Shown here in pieces: positions 2,752 through 19,847 of a DNA stretch of 64,000 bases (position 1 is its first letter; every line of letters begins with the position of its first letter). The notes under the pieces are model-generated. The model was not told the origin of the DNA. It made no database searches and saw nothing but the letters and a program-made list of their open reading frames with translations. The stretch comes from Syntrophobacterales bacterium (lineage in GTDB: Bacteria > Desulfobacterota > Desulfobaccia > Desulfobaccales > 0-14-0-80-60-11). The translations under genes and the position numbers were made by a program. Where the stretch lies: contig JAILZL010000004.1 of assembly GCA_023512475.1 (NCBI GenBank), positions 12,528 through 76,527 of the forward strand, written 5' to 3'.

Positions 2752-3924
2752 ATGCGTCTGGATGATCTCGTTCGCATCAGCGTGCGGCAGGTGTATCGCC
2801 ACCGCCGCCGCTACTGGGGGGTGATCCTGGCCATTGCCCTGGGCGTGGCCGGCTTTACCACCATCATCACCATCGGCCGGGACGTGAAGAGGAATTTCAA
2901 CCAGGACCTGGAGCTCATCGGCAGCGCCAATCTCATCCGCCTCTACTGGGATCTCCGCCCCGGCGAGAGCCCTGACTGGTTCCGGCCGGAGACGGTCAGC
3001 GCCCTGCGCCACACCCCCCAGGTCGTGGCGGTGAGTGAGTATACCCTGCGCCCGGCCGTGGTGGCCGCCGGAGGACTGCGACTGGAAATCACCGTCTGGG
3101 CGGTGGACCATTCTTTCTGGCAGCTGAAACAGTATCAGCCCGCCTATGGCCTGCTGTTTGGGGCGGACAGCGTCACCGACCGGCGGCGGGAGTGCGTTCT
3201 GGGCGCCGGGCTGGCGGCCAAACTTTTCGGGGACCGCAACCCCGTCGGCCAGACGGTGGACATCGACGCCGACCGCTATCAGGTGGTGGGGGTGATCCGC
3301 CTGGATGACTACAGCGTCTCCCAATCCCTCTTCCTGCCCCTGAGCACCGCCCGGGACCGGCTGAAAGGCGAAGTGCGGCCCGACCGGCTTTTGGTGCGCT
3401 GCGCTACCTGGGACGATGTGGAGGACGTGGCGGCGGCCATCCCCCGGGTGGTGGCCACAACGCAGTCCGCCCTCGGTCTCAATGTCTGGGTGGTCTGGGA
3501 TGCCCTGCGCCGGGTCAAGCGGGTGGCCTGGTGGATTGAGTTTTTCTTTTACCTGGCCAGCGGCGTGACCCTGCTGTTGGGAGGGGTGGGCATCTGGAAT
3601 GTGATGCTGGCGGCGGTTCAGTCCCGGACCCGGGAGATCGGCCTGAAAAAGGCCATGGGCGCGGAGGATCGGGATATCCTGGCCCAGTTCCTCACCGAGG
3701 CCCTGGTGCTGAGCGTGGGCGCCGCCCTTCTGGGGCTGGCCGCCGGGCGCCTGCTGGTGGCCGTGGCCAGCTACTGGCTGGGGCAGCGGCCCCAGGAGGA
3801 ACTCTTCATCGGCTGCCTGGGCCTCAGTCTGGCGGTGGCCTTCGCCATGGGGCTGGGGGCGGGGCTCTACCCTTCCCTGAAAGCCAGCCGCATGGAAGTG
3901 GTGGCGGCGACCCGCTATGAGTAG
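2752..3924 (+). CDS. ABC transporter permease, FtsX/MacB-type (DevC/LolC-like)
   Basis: 390 aa. N-terminal TM (WGVILAIALGVAGFTTIITI), then a large extracytoplasmic domain, then the FtsX motif REIGLKKAMGA followed by TM segments. Overlaps the downstream ATPase gene by 8 nt. Confidence 0.8.
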   Translation: MRLDDLVRISVRQVYRHRRRYWGVILAIALGVAGFTTIITIGRDVKRNFNQDLELIGSANLIRLYWDLRPGESPDWFRPETVSALRHTPQVVAVSEYTLRPAVVAAGGLRLEITVWAVDHSFWQLKQYQPAYGLLFGADSVTDRRRECVLGAGLAAKLFGDRNPVGQTVDIDADRYQVVGVIRLDDYSVSQSLFLPLSTARDRLKGEVRPDRLLVRCATWDDVEDVAAAIPRVVATTQSALGLNVWVVWDALRRVKRVAWWIEFFFYLASGVTLLLGGVGIWNVMLAAVQSRTREIGLKKAMGAEDRDILAQFLTEALVLSVGAALLGLAAGRLLVAVASYWLGQRPQEELFIGCLGLSLAVAFAMGLGAGLYPSLKASRMEVVAATRYE

Positions 3925-4648
3925 CCCCCGCAGCAACCCCGACGGCTCCCTCATCCAGGCCCGGCAGCTCACCATGGTGTATCCCAACGGCGCCGGGGAC
4001 ATCGAGGTGCTCAAAGGGGTGAGCCTCAGCCTCTTTCCCGGCGAGATGCTGGCCATCATGGGGCCCTCGGGGTCCGGCAAATCCACCCTGCTGTACATTC
4101 TGGGCCTGTTGCTCCGGCCCACGGGCGGCTCCTACTGGCTGGCGGGCCAGGACGTCCTGTCCTTGGACCGGGCCGGTCAGGCCCTCTGCCGCCGGGAACG
4201 CCTGGGGTTTGTGTTTCAGACCTGCGACCTCCTGGAAAATTCCACCGTGTATGAAAATCTGGAATTTCCCCTCATCTATGCCGGGGTGGCCCCCCGGGAG
4301 CGCCGGGAGCGGATCCTGACGGCCCTGGAGCAGGTCAATCTGGGGCATCGCCTCCGGCATGCCGCCAACCGGCTCTCAGGCGGGGAGCGCCAGCGGGTGG
4401 CGGTGGCCCGGGCGCTGGTGAACCGTCCCCTGGTCATTCTGGCGGATGAACCCACCGGGCAGCTGGATCACCGCCAGGGCCATCTGGTGATGGATCATTT
4501 TGAGGCCGTGGCCGCCGGAGGCACCGCGGTCATTGTGGTCACCCATGATCCCGACATCGCGGCCCGGTGCCACCGGGTCTGTCCCCTCCAGGACGGCCGG
4601 CTCGTGGTGGCCCCGAAGCACGCACAAGGATGGGCAGCGGATGCGTGA
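3917..4648 (+). CDS. ABC transporter ATP-binding protein (MacB/LolD/DevA-type)
   Basis: Walker A GPSGSGKST, ABC signature LSGGERQR, Walker B VILADEPTG. Confidence 0.9.
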   Translation: MSSPRSNPDGSLIQARQLTMVYPNGAGDIEVLKGVSLSLFPGEMLAIMGPSGSGKSTLLYILGLLLRPTGGSYWLAGQDVLSLDRAGQALCRRERLGFVFQTCDLLENSTVYENLEFPLIYAGVAPRERRERILTALEQVNLGHRLRHAANRLSGGERQRVAVARALVNRPLVILADEPTGQLDHRQGHLVMDHFEAVAAGGTAVIVVTHDPDIAARCHRVCPLQDGRLVVAPKHAQGWAADA

Positions 4649-5978
4649 CTCTTGGAACCGGCGGGGCGGCTGGCTGGGGCAAGGCCCGGCCCTTCTCCTC
4701 CTGGGGGTCATCGCGGGGGCGCTGGGGGTGGTGAGCGTCCTGGCATCGGCGGCGACCGGGGCGGCCGCCCGGGCCGATTTTGACACCTGCGTGTCCCTGG
4801 CCCTCCGGCATTCCCCTTATTTCAGCCGCAGTGCCCTGGAGATCGAAGTCCGGCGTCTGGATGAGAAGGACAGCAAGTCCGATTACCTGCCCACCATCAC
4901 GTTGAGAACCAAATTTTACCCTCACCAGCCCGAGCGGGCCGGGGCGGTCAATCAGCGGGACTACTCCCTGGATGTGGCCATCGAGTCCTACAACCCCCTG
5001 GTGGCCCACTACAGCCTGAAGATGCGCCAGCTCCTGACCCGCCTGGCGGTGCTGTCCCATCTCCGGGTCATTTCCGACGGCCTGCGGCAGATGGGGACCG
5101 CCTTTCTGGAACTGGAGGCCCTGTCCCGGCTGGCGGGAGTGCAGGAGCGCCTGCTGGAGGTGAGCCGCCGGCAGGAGACTTATGTCCGGCGGCTGGCGGA
5201 ATTGGGGGAGGCCACGCCTCTGGAGGTGCGGGTCGCCCTCCAGGAGGGCGAGGTGGTCAGGGGGGAGATGGCCCGGCTGCAGGCGGCCCAAACCCGCCTG
5301 AAGGCGCGGTTGCGGGATTTTGTGGGCCTCAAGGCGGAGGAACCCCGGGACTTCGACCTCGCCCAGGGTCGGCAGCAGGTGCTGAGGCCGGGGGAGCCCC
5401 GGGACTGGACCCGGCAGGAACCCCGCTCCCTGGAAGCCCGCATGGAGGCGATTAAAAAGGAGTTGCAGTCCTGGAACATCACCCTGGCGAAACTGCGGCT
5501 GCTGCCGGGTCTGACCGCTGCGGTGCAGACCCCGGATCCCGTGGCCGTAACCGGGGTCAGGGGCTATTTCGTCTCCGTGGGCCTCACCTGGCCGATCTTT
5601 GACGGCTTCAAGCGCCTGCGGGATATCTCCCGGCAAAAGACCCTGCTGGCCCAGGCGGAGGCGGAGGGCGCCGCCCAGGAGAGCGACTTCAGATCCCGCT
5701 GGCGGGAGGCGGTGGACAAACTCCAGGCCGCGGCCGCCACCCGGGAGCTGGCCCGCTCCCAGGTGGAGCTGGCCCGCATCAAGGAGCGCCAGGCGGAGCT
5801 CCGCTTTCAGGGCGGGGAGCCCCTCTCCCTGGCCCTGGCCGCCCAGCGCAGCCGCCTGGAGGCGGAGGCCCAGCTCATCGCCCGGGAACTGGAGCATGAC
5901 CAGGCCCTGCTGGAGGTGCGGGCCCTCGCCGGCGAGCTGGTGACCCCTTACGTGTCGGAAAAAAATTGGCTCCCCTGA
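4641..5978 (+). CDS. TolC-like outer membrane efflux protein (OMF)
   Basis: The ORF-track model starts at 4500, inside the ATPase gene. The in-frame ATG at 4641 overlaps the ATPase stop (ATGCGTGA) and precedes a hydrophobic signal (ALLLLGVIAGALGVVSVLASAA). Two-repeat, coiled-coil-rich OEP-like sequence. Confidence 0.7.
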   Translation: MRDSWNRRGGWLGQGPALLLLGVIAGALGVVSVLASAATGAAARADFDTCVSLALRHSPYFSRSALEIEVRRLDEKDSKSDYLPTITLRTKFYPHQPERAGAVNQRDYSLDVAIESYNPLVAHYSLKMRQLLTRLAVLSHLRVISDGLRQMGTAFLELEALSRLAGVQERLLEVSRRQETYVRRLAELGEATPLEVRVALQEGEVVRGEMARLQAAQTRLKARLRDFVGLKAEEPRDFDLAQGRQQVLRPGEPRDWTRQEPRSLEARMEAIKKELQSWNITLAKLRLLPGLTAAVQTPDPVAVTGVRGYFVSVGLTWPIFDGFKRLRDISRQKTLLAQAEAEGAAQESDFRSRWREAVDKLQAAAATRELARSQVELARIKERQAELRFQGGEPLSLALAAQRSRLEAEAQLIARELEHDQALLEVRALAGELVTPYVSEKNWLP

Positions 5979-6976
5979 CCACCCCTCATCTTGGCACAGG
6001 TGCGATGATGATGGCCGGCCGTGCTGACAAATCCGTCCTGACCCGGATCAGACGCCCCGATCTGCGCAGTTTTCTCACCGCCTGGCTGCTGATAACCCTG
6101 TTCCTGCCCGGGGCCTCCGTGTGGGCGGCCAGGGAGGCCGAGGTCCCGGCCCGGGAGCCGGGGGAGTTGCAGATCATCGGCAAACTCTCCTGCTCCCTGA
6201 AGCGGGTGGTTCTGCTGCCCTATGGAGCGGAAATCTCCGGGCTGGCCGTCACCCCCGGTCAGCCCGTGCAGACGGGGCAGGAACTGGCCCGGTATCGCCT
6301 CACCCCGGAGGCGGTGCAGGCCCTGCGCCGGCGGCTGATGCCCCCCCGGCTCCCGGAGCTGGAGGCCCAGTTGGCGCAGGTGGAAAAAGATTTGCGCGCC
6401 GCGGAGGCCCGCCGGCGCACCACCCAGAGCCTGGCGGCCGAGCAGCTCGCCTCCCGGCAGGGGCTGGCCGAAGCGGAGAACGCGGTGCTGTCCCTGCGCC
6501 GCAGCCGCAGCGCCCTGGCCCACGGCCTGAACGAAGAGCGGCGCCTCCTTCAGGAAGAGCGCCGGCTCCTGGCCCGGCAGCTGGGGGTGGCCCTCCCGGC
6601 CGCCGGAATCCCGAGGGAGGGCCGGCTTCTCGCCCCCATCTCCGGCCACGTCCTCTGGCTGCACCCGGACCTCCGGGTGGGGGCGGAACTGAAAGGGGGG
6701 GAGCCAGTCCTGCATCTCGGGGTCCTGGACCCCATGCTCCTGCGGGCCCGGGTGCATGAACGGGATTTTCCCTCCCTCAGCCCCGGGATGGAAGCCCGGG
6801 TGGCGGTGGAAACCCTGCCCCAGCGCACCTTCACCGCCCGGCTCTCCCGCCTCCCCTGGTCCTCTCCGGCGGGAGTGGAGGAGCCGGCCTATTTTGAGGC
6901 GGAGTTTCTCCTCCCCAACCCCGACCTGGTGCTGAAGGAAGGCCTCAAGGCCACTTTGCTCCTGAAGAGACCCTGA
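5966..6976 (+). CDS. HlyD-family periplasmic adaptor (membrane fusion protein)
   Basis: 336 aa. N-terminal TM (FLTAWLLITLFLPGASVWA), a long coiled-coil (LAQVEKDLRAAEARRRTTQSLAAEQL...), and a C-terminal beta-barrel-like region. The start could be the MMMAGR methionines near 6005. Confidence 0.7.
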   Translation: MAPLTTPHLGTGAMMMAGRADKSVLTRIRRPDLRSFLTAWLLITLFLPGASVWAAREAEVPAREPGELQIIGKLSCSLKRVVLLPYGAEISGLAVTPGQPVQTGQELARYRLTPEAVQALRRRLMPPRLPELEAQLAQVEKDLRAAEARRRTTQSLAAEQLASRQGLAEAENAVLSLRRSRSALAHGLNEERRLLQEERRLLARQLGVALPAAGIPREGRLLAPISGHVLWLHPDLRVGAELKGGEPVLHLGVLDPMLLRARVHERDFPSLSPGMEARVAVETLPQRTFTARLSRLPWSSPAGVEEPAYFEAEFLLPNPDLVLKEGLKATLLLKRP

Positions 6977-7470
6977 CCGCCGGAGGGGCCCTCCCCGGGC
7001 AGCCCTGCATAACCCGGTTCCTGGTTCCCGGGCCATCCTGCCCCGTCGGACCCGGCCTCCCGGATTCCCCGGGTTCGGAGCCCCCGCCGGGCTGAGGTAC
7101 GGGAAGATCAGGCCGCGGCGCCACCTCTTCAAGGCCTCGGCCCAGGTCTCCGGCCCAGCCCCGAGGGAACCTGACCCCAGGCGCCCCCTCCTCTCCTTCC
7201 CTGCCCCCGCCTTGCCGTTTCTGCCTTCCCCCGATGATCCAGGACTCCCGGGATGCCTGGAAACCTCAGGCTCGCGTCCCTGCCCCGGGCGGTATCAGCT
7301 GCGGCCCGGTGGCTCCGCCGACCTGCGGCCTGCACCCAGTCCGGGGCCTCCCCCTCCTTTGGCCATGGATCCTCCACTCACGGCCCACCCGGGCGCCGGC
7401 GCGGTCTTCATCCGCGCCCTGCCCGCCGCCACCCGGCTTGGGCCCCCCTGACCCTCTTCCCGGCTCCGGG

Positions 7471-7535
7471 GACTGGCCCCCTCCCCCCCGGCTTAGGTGA
7501 CTGGCCCCCTCCCCACGGCTCTGGCCCCCTGCCCC
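7471..7535 (+). repeat. C-rich direct repeats (gactggccccctcccc x2 plus a degenerate third copy)
   Basis: Perfect 16-mer at 7471-7486 and 7499-7514. Related ctggccccctgcccc at 7521-7535. They sit inside a non-coding spacer of about 650 nt that is strongly C-rich on the + strand. Confidence 0.8.
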
Positions 7536-7631
7536 TTCCCTTGCTCAGGCGGCTTGGCCACCTCTTAGGGCTTCGGCGCCCTGCCTGCCGCCCAGCCGGG
7601 CCTGCCCCCGGGACCGACGCCCCTGCCCCCC

Positions 7632-8615
7632 TCACCACCAGGAGCGGGGCAGGCGCACCCTCACCCGCATGCCGTAGACCAGCCGGTGGGGATTGGCCTG
7701 CTCTGCGGCGATTTCCGCCACCAAGGCCCGTTGCCGCCGCAGGTAGTAATCCTGATATTCCGGCGGCAGGGGTTCGGAAGCCGGATAGACCTTCTTGACC
7801 GTGCCCGGAGTGCGGCGGCCGTCGGCGAAGAGGATGGTGGTGGCCTGACCGGGATGGACCCGCTCCCGATCCTTTTCCGCCACGAAGGCTTTGACGAAGA
7901 GGTCATGCGGGTCCACCAGGGTGAGCACCGCCTGCCCCGCCTGCACCACCTCCCCGGGCTGGCGGTTGCGGCTGATGACCACGCCTTCCCGGGGGAGGCG
8001 CAGCTCCGTGACCACCCGGGCGGCGGGCTGCTGAAAGCGGTGGTACAGGTCGGCCAGAAGCTGCCGTTCCTTCTTGAGGACCGTCAGCCGCTGCTTCAGC
8101 CTCCCCACCTCGGCCTCGGCCTCCCGACACTCCAGGTCCAATTTTTTAACATCCCCGTATTTCAGGATTTTTTGCTCCAAAAGCTCCTGGGAGCGGCGCC
8201 GCTCCTGGGCCAGGGCCGCGGCCACCCCGCCCTTGAGACGTATCTCCCGGGCCGTCACCTCCGCGTCCCCGGCCAGGCGGGTCAGGGCCTCCTCAATGCG
8301 GAAGATCATCTCCGGCGGCCAGGTGTCGGCGAGGCGGCGGGTGACATCCACCCGGGCCACCACGGTGCCTGCCGGGACCGTATCCCCCACTTCCACCAGC
8401 ACCTGCTCCAGCCGGCCGGGCTCCTCGCACTGCACCAAAAACTCCCGGCCGTCCACCAGGGCCGGGAGGTCCAGGTAGAGGGCCCGGCGGCCCAGCCACT
8501 CGCCCAGGGCCAGCACCAGGCAGGCCAGCAAGGCCAGATACAGGAACTTACCCCAGGAGCGCCGGGGCGGCTCCGGCTCCCTTTTGTACAGGGGCGGCAA
8601 TGCCGGGGCTTTCAT
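7632..8615 (-). CDS. HlyD-family periplasmic adaptor, last gene of the EPS module
   Basis: 327 aa. N-terminal TM (FLYLALLACLVLALGEWL), a lipoyl-like hairpin (VEVGDTVPAGTVVARVD ... GEVVQAGQAVLTLVD) and a central coiled-coil. Confidence 0.8.
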   Translation of the reverse strand: MKAPALPPLYKREPEPPRRSWGKFLYLALLACLVLALGEWLGRRALYLDLPALVDGREFLVQCEEPGRLEQVLVEVGDTVPAGTVVARVDVTRRLADTWPPEMIFRIEEALTRLAGDAEVTAREIRLKGGVAAALAQERRRSQELLEQKILKYGDVKKLDLECREAEAEVGRLKQRLTVLKKERQLLADLYHRFQQPAARVVTELRLPREGVVISRNRQPGEVVQAGQAVLTLVDPHDLFVKAFVAEKDRERVHPGQATTILFADGRRTPGTVKKVYPASEPLPPEYQDYYLRRQRALVAEIAAEQANPHRLVYGMRVRVRLPRSWW

Positions 8616-8628
8616 GGTCTCTCCTCCC

Positions 8629-10725
8629 TCAGCGCCACTTTTTCACCTCCTCGTACTGAAACAGGGCAAAGCCGGCCGGGGGCGGCTTCAGCTGCCCCTG
8701 GAGGCGGGCCAGAAAAGCCCGGAGGGCCGCCTCGCCGGCAAAGTCCCGCACCTGCACCCCCACCCAGTAGGGTTTCCCGAGGCGGCTCAGCAGGGCGGTT
8801 TCCGCCGTCAGGGATGCCGCCAGGCGCTGCGGGTCGGTCTGTTCATAGGCCATAAACACCACCCCGTCAGCCTGGCGGAGGAGCTCCGGCCACATCTCCA
8901 CCCCTTCCTCCTCCAGCCATACCGGCACATCCAGCCACACCGGCAGTCCCGCCCCCTGGGATTGCACCAGCCTGAGGGTCTCCAGGAGGTAGCCGGCATA
9001 GGTGGCCCGCCGCTCCCGCCATTGGGGGAGCTGGTGGATCTCCAGGTCCAGATGCACGGCCCGGAAGCGGGCCTCCTCCGGCCCCCCGGCCTGGAACTCC
9101 CGCAGCCAGCGGAGATAACCGAGAAGATCGTCCCGGCGCGCCGGCAGGAGCCAGGTGGTTTCATCCAACAGGGCATGCACGGCCACCCCCTGGCGGTGCG
9201 CGGCCGCCAGGAATTCCCGCAGCCGGGGGGCAAATCCATTCCCCGGCGCGATCATGGCGCGATTCAGACAGAGATAGACCGCCGTCAGCCCCTTCTCCCG
9301 GGCCAGGGCGGGGAGCCGGCCCAGCTCTCCGGAGGTGATCAGGCGGTCGGGGTAATAGAGCCAGACGGCCAAAGGCGGGGAGGCCGCCGCAGCCGGGGAG
9401 GGCGGCGCCCCGGTCGCCGTCGGAACGGCGGTCAGGTCATCCGTGCCCACCGCCAGGAGCAGGGCGGCGTAAGCCCGTTCCCGCTCCGCCTCCCGGGCGG
9501 CCTCCTCCCGGGCCGCGGTCTCCGCCTGCACCCGGGCCGACAGCACCTCCAGGCCCGAGGCGGAGGCCAGGAGGGAAGGCTTCGCCGCCATGACCATTCT
9601 GGCCCGGAGCTGTTCTTCCGCCAGCCGGCGCTGGGTTTGGGCCACTCTCAGGCGCGCCTCCGCGGCCTGGTAGCGCTCCAGGGCCGCCGCCACCTCCCGC
9701 TCCACCTGAAGGGCCAGGGCCTCGCCCCGGGCCTCCTGGGCCGCCGCCTCGCTTTGGGAGCTCTCCCGGCGATGGCGCACCAGCTGCACCGCCTCCAAGG
9801 GGGCGGTGAACCGGGCCATGAGGAAGGCGCCGCTGCGGGTGCCGATGTCTTTGTATTGATCCACGTAGTAGCGGGCCTCCAGGTTGAGGTCGCACACCTG
9901 GGCCACCGCCCGCTCGCCGTTGATGCGGGCCTCCCGCACGCGCCAGGGCACTGCGGCGAGCTCCGGCCGGGAGTTTCGGGCCAGACGCACCAGTTCAGCG
10001 AAACCGGGCAGCCGGGGCCTTTCCGGGGTATGGGGAGCCAGCTGCACGGCGCCGGGGTCGAGGCCCAAAAGGGTGGCCAGGCGCTGGCGGCGGTTCTCCT
10101 GCACCCGGGCCGCCAGGGCCGCCTGCTCCCGGGCCTCCAGCCACTGGTGCTCCAGGGCCAGCACCTCAGCCGGGAGGACCTCCCGCTCTTTTTCCCCCCG
10201 GCGAGCCAGGCGGACGGCCTCTTCCAGGAGCGCGGCCGCGCTCCGATGCCGCCTCTTTTGCTCCTCTGCCTCCCAGTGCTCCAGATAAAGCTGCCGCACC
10301 TCGAAAAGCGCCTCCTGCAGCGCCCGCCGGCCCTCCGCCTCGGCCGCCTTGAGCTGGCAGGCGGCCCGTTCCACCTCCCCCGGCCCCGCCCCCAGGCGTT
10401 TCAGAACCGGCAGCACCACCCCGGCCTCGGCATGATGCTGGACGCTGCTGAAGCTCCGGTCCGTCTCGCTGAACACGGGATTGGTGTTGTAGTTGTAGCC
10501 GGCCTGGAATTCCGGGCCGAAGCGGTGCCGGGACTCGTCTTTCCGGCTGGCCAGGGAGCGGCACCGGAACTGTGCCTCTTTGACCAGGGGATGGCGGCTC
10601 GCCGCCAGGACCTCCAGATCCCGCAACGACAGCACCCCGGCAGGCGGGGCCGGCGCGGCCCCGGCCGGACTTGCCGACCCCCACCCGAGACTGATCGCCA
10701 CCAGCGCACACACGAGGATGCCCAT
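8629..10725 (-). CDS. TolC-like outer membrane factor fused to a C-terminal glycoside-hydrolase-like (alpha/beta-barrel-like) domain
   Basis: The ORF-track start at 10959 overlaps the upstream GT2 gene. The in-frame ATG at 10725 gives a signal peptide (MGILVCALVAISLGWGSASPAGA) 10 nt after the GT2 stop. Residues ~30-450 are OEP/TolC-like coiled-coil repeats. A Pro/Ala linker follows. The last ~240 aa show alternating strand/helix segments (AVYLCL, VAVHALL, AVHLDLE, VWLDVP, VVFMAYE, YWVGVQV). Confidence 0.65.
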   Translation of the reverse strand: MGILVCALVAISLGWGSASPAGAAPAPPAGVLSLRDLEVLAASRHPLVKEAQFRCRSLASRKDESRHRFGPEFQAGYNYNTNPVFSETDRSFSSVQHHAEAGVVLPVLKRLGAGPGEVERAACQLKAAEAEGRRALQEALFEVRQLYLEHWEAEEQKRRHRSAAALLEEAVRLARRGEKEREVLPAEVLALEHQWLEAREQAALAARVQENRRQRLATLLGLDPGAVQLAPHTPERPRLPGFAELVRLARNSRPELAAVPWRVREARINGERAVAQVCDLNLEARYYVDQYKDIGTRSGAFLMARFTAPLEAVQLVRHRRESSQSEAAAQEARGEALALQVEREVAAALERYQAAEARLRVAQTQRRLAEEQLRARMVMAAKPSLLASASGLEVLSARVQAETAAREEAAREAERERAYAALLLAVGTDDLTAVPTATGAPPSPAAAASPPLAVWLYYPDRLITSGELGRLPALAREKGLTAVYLCLNRAMIAPGNGFAPRLREFLAAAHRQGVAVHALLDETTWLLPARRDDLLGYLRWLREFQAGGPEEARFRAVHLDLEIHQLPQWRERRATYAGYLLETLRLVQSQGAGLPVWLDVPVWLEEEGVEMWPELLRQADGVVFMAYEQTDPQRLAASLTAETALLSRLGKPYWVGVQVRDFAGEAALRAFLARLQGQLKPPPAGFALFQYEEVKKWR

Positions 10726-10735
10726 GGGTCCGTCC

Positions 10736-12040
10736 TTACCAGTGAATGGTTCTTTTCCCCACCCACGGCGGGATGTAGCGCACCCGGTAGGTGTAGGTGA
10801 ACAGCCACTCCCCCACATGGGCCGCCAGCCGCACCGGACGCAGTAAAAAATTGTTGTACAGGGGGAACAAAGGCACATAGAGGAGCAGGGGGAGATCCAG
10901 GCGCCGGCGGTCGAAAAGGGCCCAGGCGGTGGCGAATTGGGCCAGGGAAAAGAGGACATAGACGAAATACACCGCCACCAGCACCACCAGGGTGGCCTCC
11001 CGAAAGAGGTAGTAGAGATAAAAGGGGTAGAGGACGAAGGCCAGGTTCTGCACCAGCTGGAAAAGGATCAGGTCAATGGCGCCCAGCAGGCTGCGGACGG
11101 AGAAGTTGGCGGCGCTCAGATCATAGAGATTGCGGTATTTCCTCAGCACCAGGCTGATGAGGGAGTTGTCCCAGCGCAGCCGCTGGCGGATGAGGCCCCG
11201 CACCGTGGCCGGAACCTCGGTGAGACAGAGGGTGCGGGGGGCGAAGGCGATGCGCCAGCCCTTTTCCCGGAGTTTGATGGTAATGTCCAGGTCTTCGCAG
11301 GTGTGCACGTCAAAGCCGCCCACCTGCGCCAGGGCCACCCGCCGCATGACCCCGAAGCCGCCCGAGACGATGAAGAGGGTGCCCCACCAGGCTTGGGCGA
11401 TGCGGCCCACCGAAATGGAGATGAGGTATTCCAGGTCCTGGAGGGCGGTGAGCACGCCGGCCTGGGCGTTTCGGGCCCGCAGGTTGCAGGACACCGCCCC
11501 CACCTGGGGATCGCAGAACTTTTTCAGGGCCTCCGCCACGGAGGTGCGGCTGAGGGAGCTGTCGGCGTCCAGGACCACCACGAACTCCCCCGAAGCAAAG
11601 TTGAGGGCCAGGTTCTGGGCCGAGGCCTTGCCGGTGCGCTGCTCATTGCGGAAGACCCGCACCCGGGGATCCTGATCCTGCCAGCGGCGGGCCACCTGTG
11701 AGGTGCCGTCGCGGGAGCCGTCGTCCACCACCAGGACCTCCAGCCAGGGATAGCTCTGGTCCAGCACGGAGGCCAGGGTCTGCCCCAGGTGGGCGGCTTC
11801 GTTGTGGGCGGGGATGATGACCGAGACCACCGCCTCCTCGGCCTGAAGCCGGGTCAGAAACGCCTCCTCCGCCGGATCCTGCCGCACCACCAGGCTCCGG
11901 AGCAGCACCGCCAGATCCGCCATCAGGTAGCGGCCGCAGTCGAAGAGCACAAAAGGCCAGAAGATGCTCCAGAACTGCCACCGGCTCAGGTGCATCAGGA
12001 AGCGCAGGGCGTCTTCCGCCAGAGAGAAAAGGAACTCCAT
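10736..12040 (-). CDS. Processive family-2 glycosyltransferase (PgaC/NodC/cellulose-synthase-like polysaccharide synthase)
   Basis: ATG at 12040 (MEFLFSLAEDAL...). The ORF-track start at 12178 adds an implausible Cys/Ser-rich leader. Motifs: VIIPAHNE, VVDDGSRDGT, LDADS (DxD), CEDLD, and QRLRW (QxxRW). TM segments flank the GT domain at both ends. Confidence 0.85.
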   Translation of the reverse strand: MEFLFSLAEDALRFLMHLSRWQFWSIFWPFVLFDCGRYLMADLAVLLRSLVVRQDPAEEAFLTRLQAEEAVVSVIIPAHNEAAHLGQTLASVLDQSYPWLEVLVVDDGSRDGTSQVARRWQDQDPRVRVFRNEQRTGKASAQNLALNFASGEFVVVLDADSSLSRTSVAEALKKFCDPQVGAVSCNLRARNAQAGVLTALQDLEYLISISVGRIAQAWWGTLFIVSGGFGVMRRVALAQVGGFDVHTCEDLDITIKLREKGWRIAFAPRTLCLTEVPATVRGLIRQRLRWDNSLISLVLRKYRNLYDLSAANFSVRSLLGAIDLILFQLVQNLAFVLYPFYLYYLFREATLVVLVAVYFVYVLFSLAQFATAWALFDRRRLDLPLLLYVPLFPLYNNFLLRPVRLAAHVGEWLFTYTYRVRYIPPWVGKRTIHW

Positions 12041-12452
12041 GTGGGGGCCCGCAGATTTTTTCCTGCATCGGCTTTTGGGACATGAACTCGAACAATTTTC
12101 GAAAAAACTTAAAGAAAATTTTGGGCACGGCCGGAATGGGGTGGAGCCGACGGCCGTTTTCTGAGGCGGGAGGGACAAAGAGGCGTGGCGGCTTTGCGGG
12201 GCCCTGCTTGGAGAGGCAAGGGAAAATCCTGCCCCAGCGCCGGCTGGGAGGACCTGCTCCGTGGCGGAGTGGTCATGCGGAGGCCGAGGCGGATGTGCCG
12301 TACAGTTCGGTCCGCCCGCCCGGGGCGGGGAGGTCAGGTGGTTTCCGACAAGCTACCGGGGAAAAACCCGGCCTTCCGGTTCCGGAAGGCGGCAGAAGCG
12401 GGTTTCCGGCCCCGGGGACGCCCCTCCTCCTGGCCCAGGAGCAGGACCGGGG

Positions 12453-13457
12453 TCAGTCGGCGGCGGGGCGCCGGCCGAAGCTGGCCACCGCGGCGGCGTC
12501 CTCCCGGAGCCAGTCCGCCACTTCCCGGACGATTAAGGACAGGCGGCGGCGGGGCGAAAAACCCAGGAGGCTCTGGATCTTGCTGATGTCCGGCACCCGA
12601 TGGTCCATATCCTCATAGCCGGCTCCGTAGACCTGCTCATAGGGGAGGAACACGATGGGGGAGGAGGAGCGGGTGATCTCTTTCACCACCTGGGCCAAAT
12701 GGGCGATACTCACCTCCTCCGTGCTGCCGATATTGAAGATCTCCCCCACCGCCCGGGGCTCGCCCGTCAGCTGGATCAGGACCTCCACCACCTCCGCCAC
12801 GTGGATGAAGCAGCGGGTCTGGCGGCCGCTGCCATGGACGGTGATGGGTTCCCCCCGAAGGGCCTGGGCCACGAACGTGGGCAGGACCATGCCGTAGCGC
12901 CCGGTCTGGCGGGGCCCCACGGTGTTGAAGAGGCGGGTGATGATGACCGGCAGGCGGCGTTCCCGGTGGTAGGCCAGGGCCAGGAATTCATCCGCCAGCT
13001 TGGAGCAGGCATAGCCCCAGCGGCTGAGATGGCTGGGGCCCAGCACCAGGTCGTCTTCCTCGGAGAACCTCTCCCGCCGGGATTTGCCATACACCTCGGA
13101 GGTGGAGGCCACCAGGATCAGGCGCTGGTAGCGGGCCGCCAGGGACAGCAGGACATGGGTGCCCAGGATGTTGGTCTCCAGGGTCTCCACCGGGTGATGC
13201 AGGATATGCCGCACCCCCACCGCGGCGGCCAGATGGAAGATGACGTCCGCTTCCCGGACGAGCTTCGCCATCAGCTCCTGATCCCGCACATCCCCGGTCA
13301 CCAAGGAGAAGCCCGGATGGGCGGCCAGACCGGCAATATTGGCATAGGAACCGGTGCTGAAATTATCCACGGCCAGCACCCGCCGGCCTTCGCGAAGCAG
13401 CCGGGCACACAGATGGGAACCGATAAAGCCGGCCCCGCCGGTCACCAGATAGACCAT
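12453..13457 (-). CDS. NAD-dependent sugar-nucleotide epimerase/dehydratase (extended SDR)
   Basis: [11 protein letters not shown] Rossmann motif and YACSKLADE (YxxxK). 334 aa. Confidence 0.85.
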
Positions 13458-13674: not shown

Positions 13675-15111
13675 CTACGGACCGGTCAGCAGGGCGTGCT
13701 TCAGGGCCTCGGCCTCCCCGGAGCCGGGGAGCGGCAGGATCTGGCAGGAAAAATCCAGAGGAAAACTCAGGACCTCCCGGCTGCGCTGCACCAGGCGGTC
13801 CACCACGGTTTGGGCCTGAGCCGCTTCGGTTTCCGGCAGCAGGAGGAGAATCTCCCGGTGGGGGGAGACGGTCACCAGATCCGTCTGCCGGGTGTGGCTG
13901 CCGATGATCTCCTGGAGCTCCTTCACCAACAGCATTTTGCCCCCCACCCCCAGCTGGCCCTCCAGCTCCTCCAGGTTGCGGATGGCCAGGCGGATGAGGC
14001 TGGCCTGCCGGCGGTAGCGGTCGCAGCGCTTAAGCTCCAGGTCCAGGTAGGCCTGGAAGAAGGGGAAGGAGTAGATGTTCAGGAAATGATGCAGCACCTC
14101 CTCCAGGCCCAGGCGGGTGTGGAGGCCCAGGAGGGCGGCCTCGACCCCCTGCGGGGAGAGGGAAAAGCGCTGAATGGCCAGGGGGCGGGTGCGATCGGGG
14201 GGAAAGACGGCTCCGCAGCGGATGCACAGGCAGGACAGCTCCGGTTCCTGGAAGGTGCCGCCGCAGACCTCGCACAGGAGCACCTCCCCCGGCTTGGCGT
14301 AATCCACCCCGATGTGACGCAGTTCCTTGCTGCATTTGGGGCAGACATAGCGGTCCCGGCGCACGAACGCGGTCTGGGGGGCCACATGGCCGCAGCTGTA
14401 ATGCTGGATGGTGGGGGTGCGCCGCCACCGGGGGCTCTGGCAGCCGGGGCACACCTGCCGGCAGGCGAGCCGGAAATCCTCGCAGGTAGGGCACAAAGGC
14501 ACGTAATCCACCACCTCCGCCTCCAGCAGGCCTTCCCGGGCCAGACGGTTCATCTCCATCAGGCCCTGGCCCGGCGCCACCCTGAGGAGCGCATCCGCCC
14601 AGGCCAGCCGGTAGCCGTACGGGGAGGTCTCATCCCGCCCGGGCATCACCTGGGAGAGGTCCCGGGAATGGAGGAAGCGCAGCAGGGTGATCTCCCGGGC
14701 CGCCTTCTCGTCCAGCGCGGCGGAGATGGGGGGATAGCGCTCCAGGCAGGCCCGGATGGGGGTCAGGGCTTTCAGCGCCGCCCGGAACTCAAAGCCGGAG
14801 AGGGGCAGGGTGAGGAGATGATCGCACTCCGGCGGGGTCAGCCGGTGGGGGCTGCGGGGGAGCACCACAAGGACGGGGGTGAGGGCCCACCCCGGGGAGC
14901 GCCGCAGCGCCTCCAGACCGCGCCGGGCGCCGTTCTCCGCTGTGGCGGCGAAAATGAGGAGATCCACCGGAAAGGTCCGGTCCGGAACGCCTCCGGAGCT
15001 GCCCACCAGCTTCAGTTCGGCCACCCCCGAAAGTCCACCCAGGACCTCCTGGTAGAGATCGGCATTTTCCACGATGACATAAACACCATAAGAAAGCTTC
15101 TGAGATACCAT
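13675..15111 (-). CDS. Signalling protein: receiver-like N-domain + Cys-rich Zn-ribbon module (TackOD1-like?) + degenerate GGDEF domain with RxxD I-site
   Basis: 478 aa. Five CxxC pairs (C207/210, C221/224, C257/260, C280/283, C296/299). The C-terminal ~130 aa align to a GGDEF fold, but the GG(D/E)EF position reads PHREI. RQTD lies exactly 5 residues upstream of it. Confidence 0.6.
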   Translation of the reverse strand: MVSQKLSYGVYVIVENADLYQEVLGGLSGVAELKLVGSSGGVPDRTFPVDLLIFAATAENGARRGLEALRRSPGWALTPVLVVLPRSPHRLTPPECDHLLTLPLSGFEFRAALKALTPIRACLERYPPISAALDEKAAREITLLRFLHSRDLSQVMPGRDETSPYGYRLAWADALLRVAPGQGLMEMNRLAREGLLEAEVVDYVPLCPTCEDFRLACRQVCPGCQSPRWRRTPTIQHYSCGHVAPQTAFVRRDRYVCPKCSKELRHIGVDYAKPGEVLLCEVCGGTFQEPELSCLCIRCGAVFPPDRTRPLAIQRFSLSPQGVEAALLGLHTRLGLEEVLHHFLNIYSFPFFQAYLDLELKRCDRYRRQASLIRLAIRNLEELEGQLGVGGKMLLVKELQEIIGSHTRQTDLVTVSPHREILLLLPETEAAQAQTVVDRLVQRSREVLSFPLDFSCQILPLPGSGEAEALKHALLTGP

Positions 15112-15275: not shown

Positions 15276-16304
15276 ATGCCTCCGGAAACCACCGCAGCTC
15301 AGGTCACCGGGAAAGTCCCGTGGCGACGGCGTATCCCCTTGGTGGTAGCCGCGGTCCTCCTGGTGGGGGGGAGCCTCTGGTGGTGGCAGCGCCACAGTCT
15401 CCCTCCCGAGGCGGCCCTGCGCCTCACCGGCCACATTGAGGCCACCGAAACCCATCTGGGCTTCAAGGTCCCCGGCCTCATCTCCGCCATCCATTTTCAG
15501 GAAGGGGAGGAAATCCGGGCCGGACAGCTGGTGGCGGAGCTGGATGACCGGGACCTGCGGCAGGAGCTGGCCGCGGCGGAGGCCCGGCTGGCCGCCGCCC
15601 AGGCCAATCTCGCCCGGCTGGAGGCGGGCTACCGCCCCCAGGAAGTCCGGGAGGCCCAGGCCGCCGTGGCCCAGGCCCGGGCGGATTACGACGACAAGGC
15701 CCGGGAATTCCGGCGCTTTCAGACCCTCTTTGCCCGCCGGGTGGTCTCGGCCCAGACCCGGGACCGGGCCGAAGCCGCCTTCCTCATGGCCCAGGAGGCC
15801 CTGAACCGGGCCAAGGAGCGCTACGATCTCCTCCGCAGCGGCTTCCGGAAGGAGGAGATTGAGCAGGCCCGGGCCGAGGCGCAGCAGGCCGAGGCGCAGC
15901 GGGATCTGGCCCGGACCAGGTGGGGTTACGCCCGCATCACCGCCCCGGTGACCGGCGTCGTCCTGGCCCGGCCGGCGGAACCCGGCCAGGTGGCCCAGGT
16001 GGGGGCCACCATTCTCACCCTGGGGGACCTGGATAACCTCTGGTTCGAAGGCTGGCTGCCGGAGACCCAGCTCGGGAAGGTGCGCTACGGCCAGAAGGCC
16101 CAGGTGACCACCGACTCCTATCCCGGCAAGGTCTACCCCGGCTGGATCTCCTACATCGCCAGCAAGGCCGAGTTCACCCCCAAGATGGTGGAAACCTTCA
16201 AGGAGCGGGTCACCCTGGTGTACCGCACCAAAATCCGGGTGGACAACCCCCACCATGAACTCAAACCCGGCATGCCCGCGGAGGCGGTGATCCTGCCGGA
16301 GTGA
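15276..16304 (+). CDS. HlyD-family efflux adaptor (YbhG-like)
   Basis: 342 aa. N-terminal TM (IPLVVAAVLLVGGSLWWW), a lipoyl hairpin, a coiled-coil (LAAAEARLAAAQANLARLEAG...) and a C-terminal beta-barrel. Confidence 0.8.
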   Translation: MPPETTAAQVTGKVPWRRRIPLVVAAVLLVGGSLWWWQRHSLPPEAALRLTGHIEATETHLGFKVPGLISAIHFQEGEEIRAGQLVAELDDRDLRQELAAAEARLAAAQANLARLEAGYRPQEVREAQAAVAQARADYDDKAREFRRFQTLFARRVVSAQTRDRAEAAFLMAQEALNRAKERYDLLRSGFRKEEIEQARAEAQQAEAQRDLARTRWGYARITAPVTGVVLARPAEPGQVAQVGATILTLGDLDNLWFEGWLPETQLGKVRYGQKAQVTTDSYPGKVYPGWISYIASKAEFTPKMVETFKERVTLVYRTKIRVDNPHHELKPGMPAEAVILPE

Positions 16305-16371
16305 GCCCGCCAGCCGGCTCTCCGGGGCTGAGCCGCAGGCCGGAGCCCGGGCGGGGCACTATCCCGGACCG

Positions 16372-17307
16372 ATGCAGCCCGTCATCGAAGTGGAAGGCCT
16401 GACCAAGGATTTCGGCCGTTTCCGGGCGGTGGACGGAGTCAGCTTCGCCGTCTCTCCGGGGGAGATCTTCGGGTTTCTGGGGCCCAACGGCGCCGGCAAA
16501 TCCACCACCATCCGCATGTTGCTGGGGTTGCTCCGGCCCAGCGGCGGCTCCGGGCGGGTGGCCGGGTATGACCTGGTCCGGGAGCAGAGCCGCATCAAGG
16601 CGAAGGTGGGGTACATGTCCCAGCGCTTCAGCCTTTATGAGGACCTCACTGCTGAGGAGAACCTGGAGTTTTTCGGCGGGGTCTACGGCCTGAGCCAGGG
16701 GCGCCTCAGGCAGCGCCTGGCGGAGGTGCTGGAGCTGGTGGGCCTGACGGACCGGCGCCGGGACCTGACCCGCACCCTGGCCCTGGGGCTGCGCCAGCGC
16801 CTGGCGTTGGCCTCCGCCATGCTGCATGAGCCGCCGCTGCTGTTTCTGGATGAGCCCACCAGCGGCGTGGATCCCGTGTCCCGGCGGACCTTCTGGGACC
16901 TGATCTACCGGCTGGCGGCCCAGGGGGTGACGGTCCTGGTCACCACCCATTACCTGGATGAGGCGGAGTTATGCGATCGGCTGGTGCTCATTTCCCAGGG
17001 CCGGCTCATCGCCCAGGGGACTCCCCGGGAGCTGAAGGCAAAAGTGACGCACCGCATCCTGGCGGTCTACCCCGACCGGCTGGCGGAGGCCTTAGCCGCC
17101 GCCCGCCAGATCCCCGAAGCCTCCGAGGTGGCGGTGTTCGGGGCCGGCCTGCACGTGGCCTTTCCCCCGGAAGTGCCGGGGGAGGCCCTCCTGACCCGGG
17201 CCCTGGCGGCCCGGGGTGTGAGCCTCCGGGAGCTCCGGCCGGTCTCCCCCACCCTGGAGGACGCCTTCATCACCCTCACCCGCCGGGCCTCCCAGGGGAC
17301 GGTATGA
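16372..17307 (+). CDS. ABC-2-type transporter ATP-binding protein
   Basis: Walker A GPNGAGKST, Q-loop MSQRF, Walker B LLFLDEPTSG. The signature region is degenerate (TLALGLRQRLAL). Confidence 0.85.
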   Translation: MQPVIEVEGLTKDFGRFRAVDGVSFAVSPGEIFGFLGPNGAGKSTTIRMLLGLLRPSGGSGRVAGYDLVREQSRIKAKVGYMSQRFSLYEDLTAEENLEFFGGVYGLSQGRLRQRLAEVLELVGLTDRRRDLTRTLALGLRQRLALASAMLHEPPLLFLDEPTSGVDPVSRRTFWDLIYRLAAQGVTVLVTTHYLDEAELCDRLVLISQGRLIAQGTPRELKAKVTHRILAVYPDRLAEALAAARQIPEASEVAVFGAGLHVAFPPEVPGEALLTRALAARGVSLRELRPVSPTLEDAFITLTRRASQGTV

Positions 17308-18437
17308 ACCTGAGGCGCACCTTCGCCGTCTTCCGCAAGGAGCTCATCCACATCCAGCGGGATCCCTCCAGCCTGGTGCAGGCCATTCTCCTGCCGGTGA
17401 TGCTCCTGTTGCTGTACGGCTATGCCCTCACCTTTGACATCACCGAGGTGCCGGTGGCGGTCTGGGACCGGGAGCAGAGCCGGGCCAGCCGCGAGCTGGT
17501 GCAGCGCTTCGGGTCCTCCCGCTACTTTACCCTGAGCCATCAGGTGACAAGCTCCGGGGAGATCGCCCGCCTGTTTGACCGGCGCCGCATCTGGCTGGCC
17601 CTGATTCTGCCCCCGGATTTCTCCCGCTACCTGAAGACCGAAGAACCTGCACCCCTGATGGCCATCGTGGACGGCACCGACGCCAACACCGCCAATGTCA
17701 TCCTGGGCTATGTCCAGGGGGTGGTGGCCGACTACAGCCGGGAGGTGGCCCAGGACCGCCTGCGGGCCCGGGGATTCACCCGACCCCTGGTGGAACTGAA
17801 AAGCGACGTGCGGGTGTGGTTCAATGAAGATCTGGAGAGCAAAAACTACATCGTTCCCGGACTGATTGTGGTCATCATGACCATGGTGGGGTCGCTCCTC
17901 ACCGCCCTCACCATCGTCCGGGAAGCGGAGCGGGGCAGCATGGAAGGCCTCATGGCCACCCCGCTGAAGAAATGGGAGCTCATCTTCGGGAAACTGGGGC
18001 CCTACTTTCTCATCGGCATGGTGGACATGTTCATTGCCCTGGGAATGGGGAAGTTTCTCTTTGAGGTGCCGTTGCGGGGCAGCGTGGCCCTCCTGATCGT
18101 GCTGTCCGCCCTGTTTCTGGTGGTGATGCTGGGGCAGGGCCTCCTCATTTCGGTCCTGTCCGTCAATCAGCTCCAGGCCTACCAGATGGCCACCCTGTTC
18201 ACCTTTCTGCCCGCCTTTCTGCTGTCGGGCTTTGTCTTTGCCATCAAGCAGATGCCGCTGCCCCTGCAGCTGGTGAGCTATCTGGTGCCCTCCCGCTATT
18301 TCGTCACCATCTCCAAGGGCATCTATCTCAAGGGCACCGGCCTTACCCTCCTGTGGGGCGAAGTGGTGCTGCTCCTGGCCTTTGCCGTCTTCTTTCTGGT
18401 GATGGCCCAACGCCGGCTGGTGAAAAAGATCCGCTGA
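17304..18437 (+). CDS. ABC-2 family permease
   Basis: The in-frame ATG at 17304 overlaps the ATPase stop (ATGA). MNLRRTFAVFRKELIHIQRDPSSL is a typical ABC-2 N-terminus. A C-terminal polytopic region follows. The ORF-track start at 16971 lies inside the ATPase gene. Confidence 0.85.
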   Translation: MNLRRTFAVFRKELIHIQRDPSSLVQAILLPVMLLLLYGYALTFDITEVPVAVWDREQSRASRELVQRFGSSRYFTLSHQVTSSGEIARLFDRRRIWLALILPPDFSRYLKTEEPAPLMAIVDGTDANTANVILGYVQGVVADYSREVAQDRLRARGFTRPLVELKSDVRVWFNEDLESKNYIVPGLIVVIMTMVGSLLTALTIVREAERGSMEGLMATPLKKWELIFGKLGPYFLIGMVDMFIALGMGKFLFEVPLRGSVALLIVLSALFLVVMLGQGLLISVLSVNQLQAYQMATLFTFLPAFLLSGFVFAIKQMPLPLQLVSYLVPSRYFVTISKGIYLKGTGLTLLWGEVVLLLAFAVFFLVMAQRRLVKKIR

Positions 18438-18470
18438 GGGCGGCCTCAAAGGGCCTTGAAGGGGGAGTGG

Positions 18471-19601
18471 ATGCTGCGGCGACTGCGACACATGGTGAAA
18501 AAGGAGCTCATCCAGGCGCTAAGGGACCCGCGTCTCAGGCTCTTCGTCATCCTGCCGCCCCTCATCCAGCTCATCATCTACGGCTATGCCATCAACTTCG
18601 ACCTGAAGCACATCGGCACCGGGGTGCTGGATCTGGATCTGAGCCGGGCCTCCCGGCAGTTGGTCAGCCGTTTTGCCGCCACGGAATACTTTTCCCTGGA
18701 TCAGGTCCTGAAGGAGCCGGGGGACATCAGCCGCCTCATGGACCGGAACCGGGTGACCCTGGTCCTGCGTTTCGCCCCGGATTTCGGCCGGGAACTGGCC
18801 GGCGGCCGTCCGGCCCGGCTGCAGCTCATCCTGGATGGCACCGATTCCAACAGCGCCCTGGTGGTGGCCCGCTACGCCGCCCAGGTGCTGGCGGACTACC
18901 AGGAGGAGCTGGCTGCGGCGCGCCTTGCAGCCCTGGGACTGCCGCCGGAGCTGGCCCGGCCCGTGAGGCTGGAGCCCCGGGCCTGGTTCAACGAGAACCT
19001 CATCAGCCGCTGGTCCTTTGTGCCGGGGGTCATCGCCATGGTGGTCATGCTGGTGAGCCTGATGCTCACCGCCCTGGCGGTGGTGCGGGAAAAGGAACTG
19101 GGCACCATGGAGCAGATCCTGGTGACGCCCTTGCGGCCGGTGGAATTTCTCCTGGGGAAGACCATCCCCTTTGTGCTCATCGCCCTGGCGGATGTGGTGC
19201 TGGTGACCCTGGTGGGGGTTTTCTGGTTCGAGGTGCCCTTCCGGGGCAGCGTGGCGGTCCTGTTTTTGGGGGTCCTCTGCTTTCTGTTCAATTCCGTGGG
19301 CCTGGGGCTGCTCATCTCCACCGTGTCCGCCACCCAGCAGCAGGCGATGATGGCGGGGACCTTCTTTTTCACCCCGGCCATTTTGCTGTCGGGGCTGGTC
19401 TTTCCGCTGCGCAACATGCCCGAGGCGGTGCAGTATCTCACCTATCTCAATCCCTTGCGCTATTTCATCATCATCATCCAGGACGTCTTTCTCAAGGGGG
19501 CGGGGCTCTCCGTCCTCTGGCCACAGATGCTGGGCCTGGGGCTTTTGGGTCTGTCCCTTTTGACGTTCAGCGTATTGCGCTCTCAGCGGTATCTGGGATA
19601 A
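18471..19601 (+). CDS. ABC-2 family permease (paralogue of the preceding gene)
   Basis: ATG at 18471 preceded by GGGGGAG. MLRRLRHMVKKELIQALRDPRL parallels the N-terminus of the upstream paralogue. Same length and TM pattern. Confidence 0.85.
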   Translation: MLRRLRHMVKKELIQALRDPRLRLFVILPPLIQLIIYGYAINFDLKHIGTGVLDLDLSRASRQLVSRFAATEYFSLDQVLKEPGDISRLMDRNRVTLVLRFAPDFGRELAGGRPARLQLILDGTDSNSALVVARYAAQVLADYQEELAAARLAALGLPPELARPVRLEPRAWFNENLISRWSFVPGVIAMVVMLVSLMLTALAVVREKELGTMEQILVTPLRPVEFLLGKTIPFVLIALADVVLVTLVGVFWFEVPFRGSVAVLFLGVLCFLFNSVGLGLLISTVSATQQQAMMAGTFFFTPAILLSGLVFPLRNMPEAVQYLTYLNPLRYFIIIIQDVFLKGAGLSVLWPQMLGLGLLGLSLLTFSVLRSQRYLG

Positions 19602-19847
19602 GCACTGGCCCTTGATTTAACTTTTCGTTAACAAATTAACCCCTTTTCCGCCCTAGCCCCAGCCGCCCCCTCCTTCTGTACCTGAAATCAGGCCGGAAAA
19701 ATCATCAGAGCGTGTATTGCCCCGATTCAACTTAAGGTGTCGATACTACGGAATACCTGGACAAAAAATTAACCAAAATCCTCTGTCCCTCTGCCCTTCT
19801 CCGGAAGAGCCAGAGGCCCTTCGCCCATGCCACCCCAAGGAGGAGCT

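Follow-up and report, generated by a model that had tools for sequence, protein, structure and literature searches.

For cyanobacterial cellulose and rhizobial mixed-linkage β-glucan, it has been proposed that a processive glycosyltransferase of family 2 (GT2), a HlyD-type adaptor and a TolC-type outer-membrane duct together export the polysaccharide (PMC12430437, PMC13438883). This tripartite arrangement is a proposed model based on genetics in cyanobacteria and rhizobia, and direct validation is lacking according to reviewers (PMC12430437). Elsewhere, the hydrolases PgaB and PelA dock non-covalently on the tetratricopeptide repeat (TPR) domains of the porins PgaA and PelB (PMC5933820). Here, we describe a gene in a 64,000-nucleotide stretch of DNA from a Syntrophobacterales bacterium (positions 12,528 to 76,527 of contig JAILZL010000004.1, assembly GCA_023512475.1), which is hereafter called the window and whose numbering is used for its features. 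The gene, located at 8629..10725 on the minus strand, encodes a TolC-type outer-membrane factor (OMF) and a glycosidase-type barrel in a single polypeptide, and it is flanked by genes for a processive GT2 synthase and a HlyD adaptor.

On balance, we consider it probable that the locus encodes a tripartite synthase-dependent exopolysaccharide (EPS) machine in which a periplasmic glycosidase is covalently joined to the exit duct. The parts and the general logic of such a machine are known, namely the OMF, the adaptor, the processive GT2 synthase, the accessory glycosidase and control by cyclic di-GMP (c-di-GMP). A preliminary description, made from the DNA letters, had not recognized the architecture as a described one. 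In agreement with this, we found no account of the OMF-glycosidase fusion or of the four-gene module in the searchable literature, including that on poly-N-acetylglucosamine (PNAG) and HlyD systems.

The fusion gene and its TolC-type duct

The fusion gene starts with an ATG at 10725, which is preceded by AAGGA and lies 10 nt past the TAA of the upstream GT2 gene. The open reading frame (ORF) had been reported as a single one of 699 amino acids (aa) at 8629-10725. It is indeed one continuous ORF, but it runs on the minus strand and encodes 698 aa followed by a stop codon. The product is identical to the NCBI protein MCL6620997.1, whose annotation reads only 'TolC family protein [Syntrophobacterales bacterium]'. 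The plus-strand frame at the same position is open as well; its product is of low complexity, as is usual for antisense frames in DNA of 68-73% GC. A putative Sec signal peptide, read by eye from the sequence, occupies residues 1-23 (MGILVCALVAISLGWGSASPAGA; 10657..10725, minus strand) and looks like one, as first noted; the short hydrophobic N-terminus at the start of the protein is kept in the homologues L001 and P0001.

The same fusion occurs in L001, which comes from another metagenome-assembled genome and shares 79% identity across residues 1-697, and in P0001 with 70% identity. Since 65 of the best 150 representative clusters of the barrel family (see below) have it as well, the single ORF is not a sequencing or assembly artefact. 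No stop codon or frameshift divides it into two genes: the ORF is uninterrupted in the window, in L001, L003 and L004, and in many metagenome contigs of independent projects. Between the window and L001, the ratio of nonsynonymous to synonymous substitution rates (dN/dS) is 0.25 for the OMF part and 0.31 for the barrel, and both halves of the protein are under purifying selection.

Residues 24-430 (9436..10656, minus strand) constitute a complete TolC-type OMF with two OEP repeats. Pfam OEP (PF02321) matches in two stretches with E=6e-19 and 69 bits against a cut-off of 22. In a profile built from 29 full-length fusions, positions ~27-439 align end to end with E. coli TolC (10-422/19-444, E~1e-13), and the same profile also matches MtrE, OprM, OprN, VceC and CmeC. 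Both lines of evidence bear out the OEP/TolC-type N-terminal part of the preliminary description and show it to be a full-length OMF. Since the profile alignment spans the structured core of TolC, the extra domain starts where that core ends. In the full-length AlphaFold2 model, the OMF half appears as long helices with a low predicted local distance difference test score (pLDDT) and without strands. It was poorly modelled because no eligible homologues covered that half.

The OMF is followed by a Pro/Ala-rich flexible linker at residues 431-451 (…TATGAPPSPAAAASPPL; 9373..9435, minus strand), of which the Pro/Ala-rich stretch noted previously is GAPPSPAAAASPP at residues 438-450. Residues 430-446 have pLDDT values below 50 in the full-length model, and of all segments the linker differs most between the window and L001 (52% identity). 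In published TolC structures, the C-terminus of the OMF emerges outside the α-barrel near the equatorial belt. The enzyme would therefore be tethered beside the duct and not inside it, and a trimer would hold three barrels.

The C-terminal barrel and its family

The C-terminal part, residues 452-698 (8632..9372, minus strand), is a predicted (β/α)8 barrel of the GH18-like glycosidase type, as indicated by AlphaFold2, Foldseek, the family profile and Pfam scans. The AlphaFold2 model of residues 450-698, based on an alignment of 49 eligible relatives, contains eight strand/helix units with a pLDDT of 94.6 and a predicted TM-score (pTM) of 0.91. A Foldseek search of the PDB gave only distant matches (E>=3e-6, identity <=17%), nearly all of which are glycosidase barrels. 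The top matches comprise Cwp19, which is the best, a GH5 mannanase, the GH18 chitinase 6k7z, dispersin, GH164, O-GlcNAcase, PelA (at 17% identity) and PslG; the highest TM-score, 0.68-0.69, belongs to 6k7z. The resemblance to a TIM-barrel glycosidase that had been proposed from the sequence is thus supported. The structure prediction indicates a confidently modelled, enzyme-type (β/α)8 barrel, and its best structural matches are glycosidases that include hydrolases of biofilm polysaccharides.

Conservation was assessed among 54 fused and stand-alone members, which share ~25% identity. D111 and E113 of the domain, corresponding to D560 and E562 of the fusion protein, are invariant in these members, whereas H109, D150, P152, M176 and Y178 (domain numbering) and three Trp residues are invariant or nearly so. 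All conserved family residues are present in the window protein. The segment H558-L-D560-L-E562 (9040..9054, minus strand) contains the putative catalytic D-x-E at the C-terminal end of strand β4, which comprises domain residues 108-110 in the AlphaFold2 model, and it aligns with the DLDWE of GH18. M625-A-Y627 (8845..8853, minus strand) is located after β6 and aligns with the MxY(D) motif of GH18, although the Asp after M-x-Y is not conserved in the barrel family. The two motifs that the preliminary description had singled out, AVHLDLE and VVFMAYE, contain these most conserved positions (D560 and E562 in HLDLE; M625 and Y627 in FMAYE).

In the family profile, HLDxEP and MAY line up with the catalytic motifs DLDWEY and MAYD of human chitotriosidase (E~0.2). 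In Pfam scans of the 54 members one by one, 11 matched GH18 (PF00704) below the threshold, with 2.6e-6 as the best value; there was one match to EndoS_TIM, and no other family had more than two matches. Faint or weak precomputed matches to GH18 exist as well for planctomycete fusions of 703 aa. Together, these sequence comparisons suggest that the barrel is a remote relative of GH18, and it probably represents a new GH18-related family. NCBIfam has no model for the fusion protein, and a phmmer search of the PDB with the whole protein gave nothing useful.

The closest solved relative is PDB entry 10yv, 'Putative GH97 from Cellulomonas fimi', which matches the family profile over the whole domain with E=8.6e-33. 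No publication on this structure was found in the literature search. The part of the 10yv sequence that is readable from the alignment has no Pfam match, and for this reason nothing here supports the GH97 label, which is the depositors' own and may be a misnomer.

A word-index homology search with the C-terminal domain alone gave no match. Searches with the family alignment returned only stand-alone proteins, mostly from Paenibacillus, and no fusions among them; the Paenibacillus 'hypothetical proteins' match the family at E~1e-70. The extent of the family was revealed by an exhaustive search, which yielded 710 representative clusters at E<=1e-3. Among the best 150 of these clusters, the OMF-domain fusions number 65 and are ~700 aa or ~780-820 aa long. 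A further 79 are stand-alone proteins of ~300 aa whose N-terminus is hydrophobic, 5 are tandem domain-domain proteins and 1 is a chimera of the domain with a membrane fusion protein (MFP; P0020). The fusion, which the preliminary description had proposed to look for elsewhere, is therefore carried by 65 of the best 150, and the OMF-barrel architecture is widespread in databases, not rare, but labelled merely 'TolC family protein'. Ca. Hypogeohydataceae, a relative of the anammox Planctomycetota, has a fused as well as a stand-alone copy.

P0020, a truncated barrel joined to an MFP, was considered as an alternative fusion and rejected, because it probably results from a frameshift, with read-through into the adaptor gene that follows. 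At locus L002 (7276-9320 of that locus), two separate ORFs of 237 and 439 aa take the place of the fusion gene. The split and the P0020 join look like assembly frameshifts, or possibly pseudogenes, and not like alternative architectures. One N-terminally cut metagenome protein of 702 aa (P0029), whose source label is 'cell division protein FtsN', combines the OMF-barrel fusion with a further domain, SPOR, at its C-terminus.

Gene neighbourhood, synthase and regulator

The fusion gene is part of a minus-strand series in the order TackOD1/GGDEF gene, SDR gene, GT2 synthase gene, fusion gene and HlyD adaptor gene. The first encodes a 478-aa protein with a Cys-rich TackOD1 domain and a degenerate GGDEF domain (13675..15111; Pfam TackOD1 7e-45, GGDEF 4e-5). 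It is followed by a 334-aa nucleoside diphosphate-sugar epimerase/dehydratase of the short-chain dehydrogenase/reductase (SDR) type (12453..13457), which is also adjacent in loci L002 and L013, and by the processive GT2 synthase of 434 aa from MEFLFSL (10736..12040), which Pfam, NCBIfam and its motifs identify as PgaC/IcaA/NodC-like. The gene of the HlyD-family periplasmic adaptor, an MFP of 327 aa (7632..8615; Pfam HlyD_3 2.6e-17 and HlyD_D23), begins 13 nt past the fusion gene. A terminator-like hairpin (GCCTTCCGGAACCGGAAGGC followed by a T-run; 12371-12390, minus strand), recognized by consensus match only, is located between the SDR and GT2 genes. The GT2, fusion and MFP genes may therefore be transcribed apart from the TackOD1 and SDR genes.

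Profiles of the module proteins of the window were used to survey the conservation of this arrangement in loci L001-L004 and in 80 metagenome loci. Wherever the flank is long enough, in the window, in L001-L004 and in the metagenome loci alike, an MFP gene comes after every OMF-domain gene. The full set of TackOD1, GT2, OMF-domain and MFP genes is present in 13 loci (the window and 12 further ones), in two gene orders; L001 ends before the TackOD1 position. The placement of the fusion gene in an EPS system, as originally suggested, thus agrees with its position between a processive GT2 gene and a HlyD adaptor gene, an arrangement conserved across many lineages and frequent among environmental bacteria.

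The GT2 synthase has the motifs that mark processive GT2 enzymes (DDG, DAD, CED and QRLRW) together with N-terminal and C-terminal transmembrane helices. Its best NCBIfam match is PgaC_IcaA (2.3e-57, below the curated equivalog cut-off), followed by NodC, and its alignment with E. coli PgaC covers 361 aa at 30% identity (E=3e-41). In five loci, stand-alone barrels are encoded no more than 8 kb away from a synthase of the same type. Three of these loci, L048 (2305-8795 of that locus), L052 (423-9791) and L020 (3863-10465), carry stand-alone or tandem barrels in co-directional runs with a PgaC-like GT2 gene. These runs also hold genes for GlmS-like (GATase and SIS), GlmU-like (NTP_transferase and Hexapep) and GlmM-like (PGM_PMM I-IV) proteins, a UDP-sugar dehydrogenase and a response regulator, and neither an OMF nor an MFP gene was found near the barrels. 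The three loci look like another packaging of the same synthase-hydrolase pair.

The exported polymer is probably based on N-acetylhexosamine (HexNAc), because there are extra genes for the supply of UDP-N-acetylglucosamine (UDP-GlcNAc), the synthase is PgaC/NodC-like and the active site of the barrel is GH18-like. The chemistry of GH18 requires a 2-acetamido group.

In the TackOD1 protein, PHREI stands in place of the GGDEF active-site motif, and an RxxD motif of the inhibitory site (RQTD) is located exactly five residues upstream. The RxxD motif is kept in 12 of the 12 alignable homologues from syntenic loci, whereas the active-site motif varies freely. By its sequence, the protein therefore looks like a c-di-GMP receptor of the PelD type. 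The only paper found that mentions TackOD1 calls its function obscure, and the PelD-type reading would place the domain in the context of bacterial polysaccharide synthesis.

Several other features surround the module. A second, conventional tripartite set (2752-6976, plus strand) converges on the EPS operon. It comprises a MacB-like permease (2752-3924), an ORF that is probably the ATPase of this permease (3917-4648), an ordinary OEP-family OMF without an extra domain (4500-5978), which serves as an internal control for the fusion, and a HlyD-like ORF (5966-6976), all on the plus strand. The interval of ~650 bp between the convergent operons (6977-7631, ~72% GC) contains no convincing ORF, only spurious Gly/Arg/Pro-rich frames, and no Rfam match; Rfam and tRNA features were found nowhere in the window. 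Divergent from the TackOD1 gene, a series at 15276-19615 (plus strand) contains adaptor and ABC genes without an OMF of their own, namely a HlyD adaptor (15276-16304), an ABC ATPase (16372-17307) and an ABC-2 permease (16971-18437). The profile of the EPS-module adaptors gives this adaptor a good score, but the adaptor may itself have entered that profile. A multihaem c-type cytochrome with Cytochrome_C7 and MtrC/MtrF-like domains (19827-21203, plus strand) is encoded near the cluster, and the homologous planctomycete locus L003 likewise has a multihaem cytochrome at its flank.

Proposed mechanism, alternatives and known systems

In the EPS machine that we favour, the PgaC/NodC-like GT2 of the inner membrane would polymerize and translocate a β-linked sugar, probably HexNAc-based. 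The HlyD-type adaptor would link the synthase to the TolC-type duct, which would take the polymer over the outer membrane. The Pro/Ala linker would hold the GH18-like (β/α)8 glycosidase at the periplasmic C-terminus of the duct, three per trimer, where it may fill the role of the separate BcsZ, PslG, PelA, AlgL, XcsC or PgaB C-terminal domain of other systems. D560, E562 and Y627 are the candidate catalytic residues, plausibly in the substrate-assisted retaining chemistry of GH18. The glycosidase would cleave the system's own polymer in the periplasm and thereby clear or release mis-routed or stalled chains, or set the chain length. The TackOD1/degenerate-GGDEF protein probably couples synthesis to c-di-GMP. 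Because the enzyme would lie outside the channel, it would likely cut chains in the periplasm and not those within the sealed conduit.

Several observations weigh against this proposal. An enzyme tethered outside the α-barrel cannot reach polymer inside a sealed duct, and the full-length model is not reliable in its OMF part and is also uninformative on the placement of the domain. The C-terminal domain of the window protein (residues ~450-698) has no Pfam or NCBIfam match, and the GH18 signals in the family are all below threshold. Of the DxxDxDxE motif of GH18, only D-x-E is retained, with H558 at the position of the second Asp. An hhalign comparison of the family with the single sequence of E. 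coli ChiA (GH18) was not significant, and neither was that with the single sequence of E. coli PgaB, in which residues 310-672 (GH153) gave a probability of 1.4% over 27 columns. Because of the sub-threshold scores, the partial motif and the non-significant comparisons with ChiA and PgaB, membership in GH18 is not established. Moreover, 10yv carries Q, V and F where the family has H, M and Y, and the family may therefore not be mechanistically uniform. Finally, the stand-alone homologues of Paenibacillus have no polysaccharide gene context.

The last point is also relevant to an unlikely alternative, in which the barrel is a peptidoglycan-active enzyme, either an N-acetylglucosaminidase or a lytic enzyme, that opens the sacculus locally for assembly of the machine, the part that dedicated lytic enzymes play in other secretion systems. 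The GH18-like D-x-E/Y site would suit a β-1,4-linked HexNAc polymer such as peptidoglycan, and some members of GH18, such as SleL/YaaH of Bacillus, act on cortex peptidoglycan. The best Foldseek match, Cwp19, is a cell-wall protein of C. difficile, and secreted stand-alone copies without polysaccharide context exist in Gram-positive bacteria. The C-terminus of an OMF is near the level of the sacculus, and P0029 has a SPOR domain, which binds peptidoglycan; this fusion, however, was seen only once. The conventional OMF of the same window (4500-5978) has no such domain, and to our knowledge AcrAB-TolC, HlyBD-TolC and MacAB-TolC need no dedicated peptidoglycan hydrolase. In addition, the stand-alone copies accompany the same synthase type and UDP-GlcNAc supply genes, not cell-wall genes.

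It is quite improbable that the barrel is a non-catalytic, lectin-like binding module that catches, guides or retains the nascent chain at the duct or anchors the finished polymer to the cell. Non-catalytic lectins exist among GH18-like proteins, and a site beside the duct would suit a guide or a dock. However, lectins of the GH18 type typically lose the Glu, whereas the putative acid/base pair D-x-E and the Tyr are invariant or nearly so in very divergent members of this family. There is a negligible chance that the fusion is artificial, from assembly or annotation, or that the gene is decaying, with two adjacent genes read through: P0020, the apparent frameshift read-through, and L002 with its split ORFs do look artefactual, but the ORF is continuous in independent assemblies, 65 representative clusters share the architecture and purifying selection acts on both halves.

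If the EPS machine is as proposed, the fusion bears on why every synthase-dependent system needs a hydrolase and on where the hydrolase acts, as it holds enzyme and outer-membrane exporter together in a 1:1 ratio. The occurrence of synthase, adaptor and dedicated duct side by side in many lineages provides strong genomic support for the tripartite model, and the compact four-gene module is available for reconstitution. The barrel itself belongs to an uncurated family of at least 710 clusters with a solved, apparently unpublished structure; it could become a new CAZy family and a candidate for biofilm dispersal. More tentatively, and with slightly less than even confidence, we propose that the barrel founds a new glycoside hydrolase family remotely related to GH18, and that barrel, PgaC-like synthase, HlyD adaptor and TackOD1/degenerate-GGDEF protein jointly define an unrecognized, widespread class of c-di-GMP-controlled tripartite machines. 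The machines of this class would export a chitin-like or PNAG-like matrix polymer through a duct that bears the processing enzyme, in anaerobic and environmental lineages such as the Syntrophobacterales, relatives of the anammox Planctomycetota and probably others.

Compared with the TolC/OMF family, the fusion protein shares the two OEP repeats, the end-to-end alignment of the core and the adjoining HlyD-type adaptor. In contrast to members of that family, it has an extra enzyme-like domain of ~250 aa at the C-terminus after the Pro/Ala linker, and its duct is dedicated to a GT2 synthase and not to an ABC, RND or MFS pump. The barrel resembles the GH18 chitinases and endo-β-N-acetylglucosaminidases in its (β/α)8 fold, the D-x-E at the end of β4 and the M-x-Y after β6, whereas it scores below the Pfam threshold, lacks the full DxxDxDxE motif and is smaller (247 aa). 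10yv is a true member of the barrel family, but it is a stand-alone actinobacterial protein of 275 aa without the conserved H, M and Y.

Among export systems, XcsA-XcsB-TolC with the endoglucanase XcsC and BgsA-BgsB-TolC likewise combine a GT2, a HlyD-like adaptor and a TolC-type duct; they are under c-di-GMP control, which is predicted for the present locus as well (PMC12430437, PMC13438883), and the Xcs system also has an associated glycosidase, XcsC. However, the ducts of Xcs and Bgs are housekeeping TolC proteins encoded elsewhere, whereas the present operon encodes its own duct, to which the putative glycosidase is covalently joined. In those systems, the polymer is a glucan, and a hydrolase is either a protein of its own or not known. 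The synthase in the present locus is PgaC/NodC-like and its predicted regulator is the TackOD1/degenerate-GGDEF protein, in place of PilZ or a C-terminal synthase domain in Xcs and Bgs. The PgaABCD and Pel systems, with the GH153 C-terminal domain of PgaB and the GH166 PelA, resemble the present locus in a related synthase (30% identity to PgaC) and in holding a TIM-barrel hydrolase, putative in the present locus, at the outer-membrane exporter (PMC5933820). In clear distinction from them, the present module has no CE4 deacetylase and no PgaD, its exporter is predicted to be an α-barrel/β-barrel OMF with an MFP instead of a TPR-porin, and its putative hydrolase is attached covalently.

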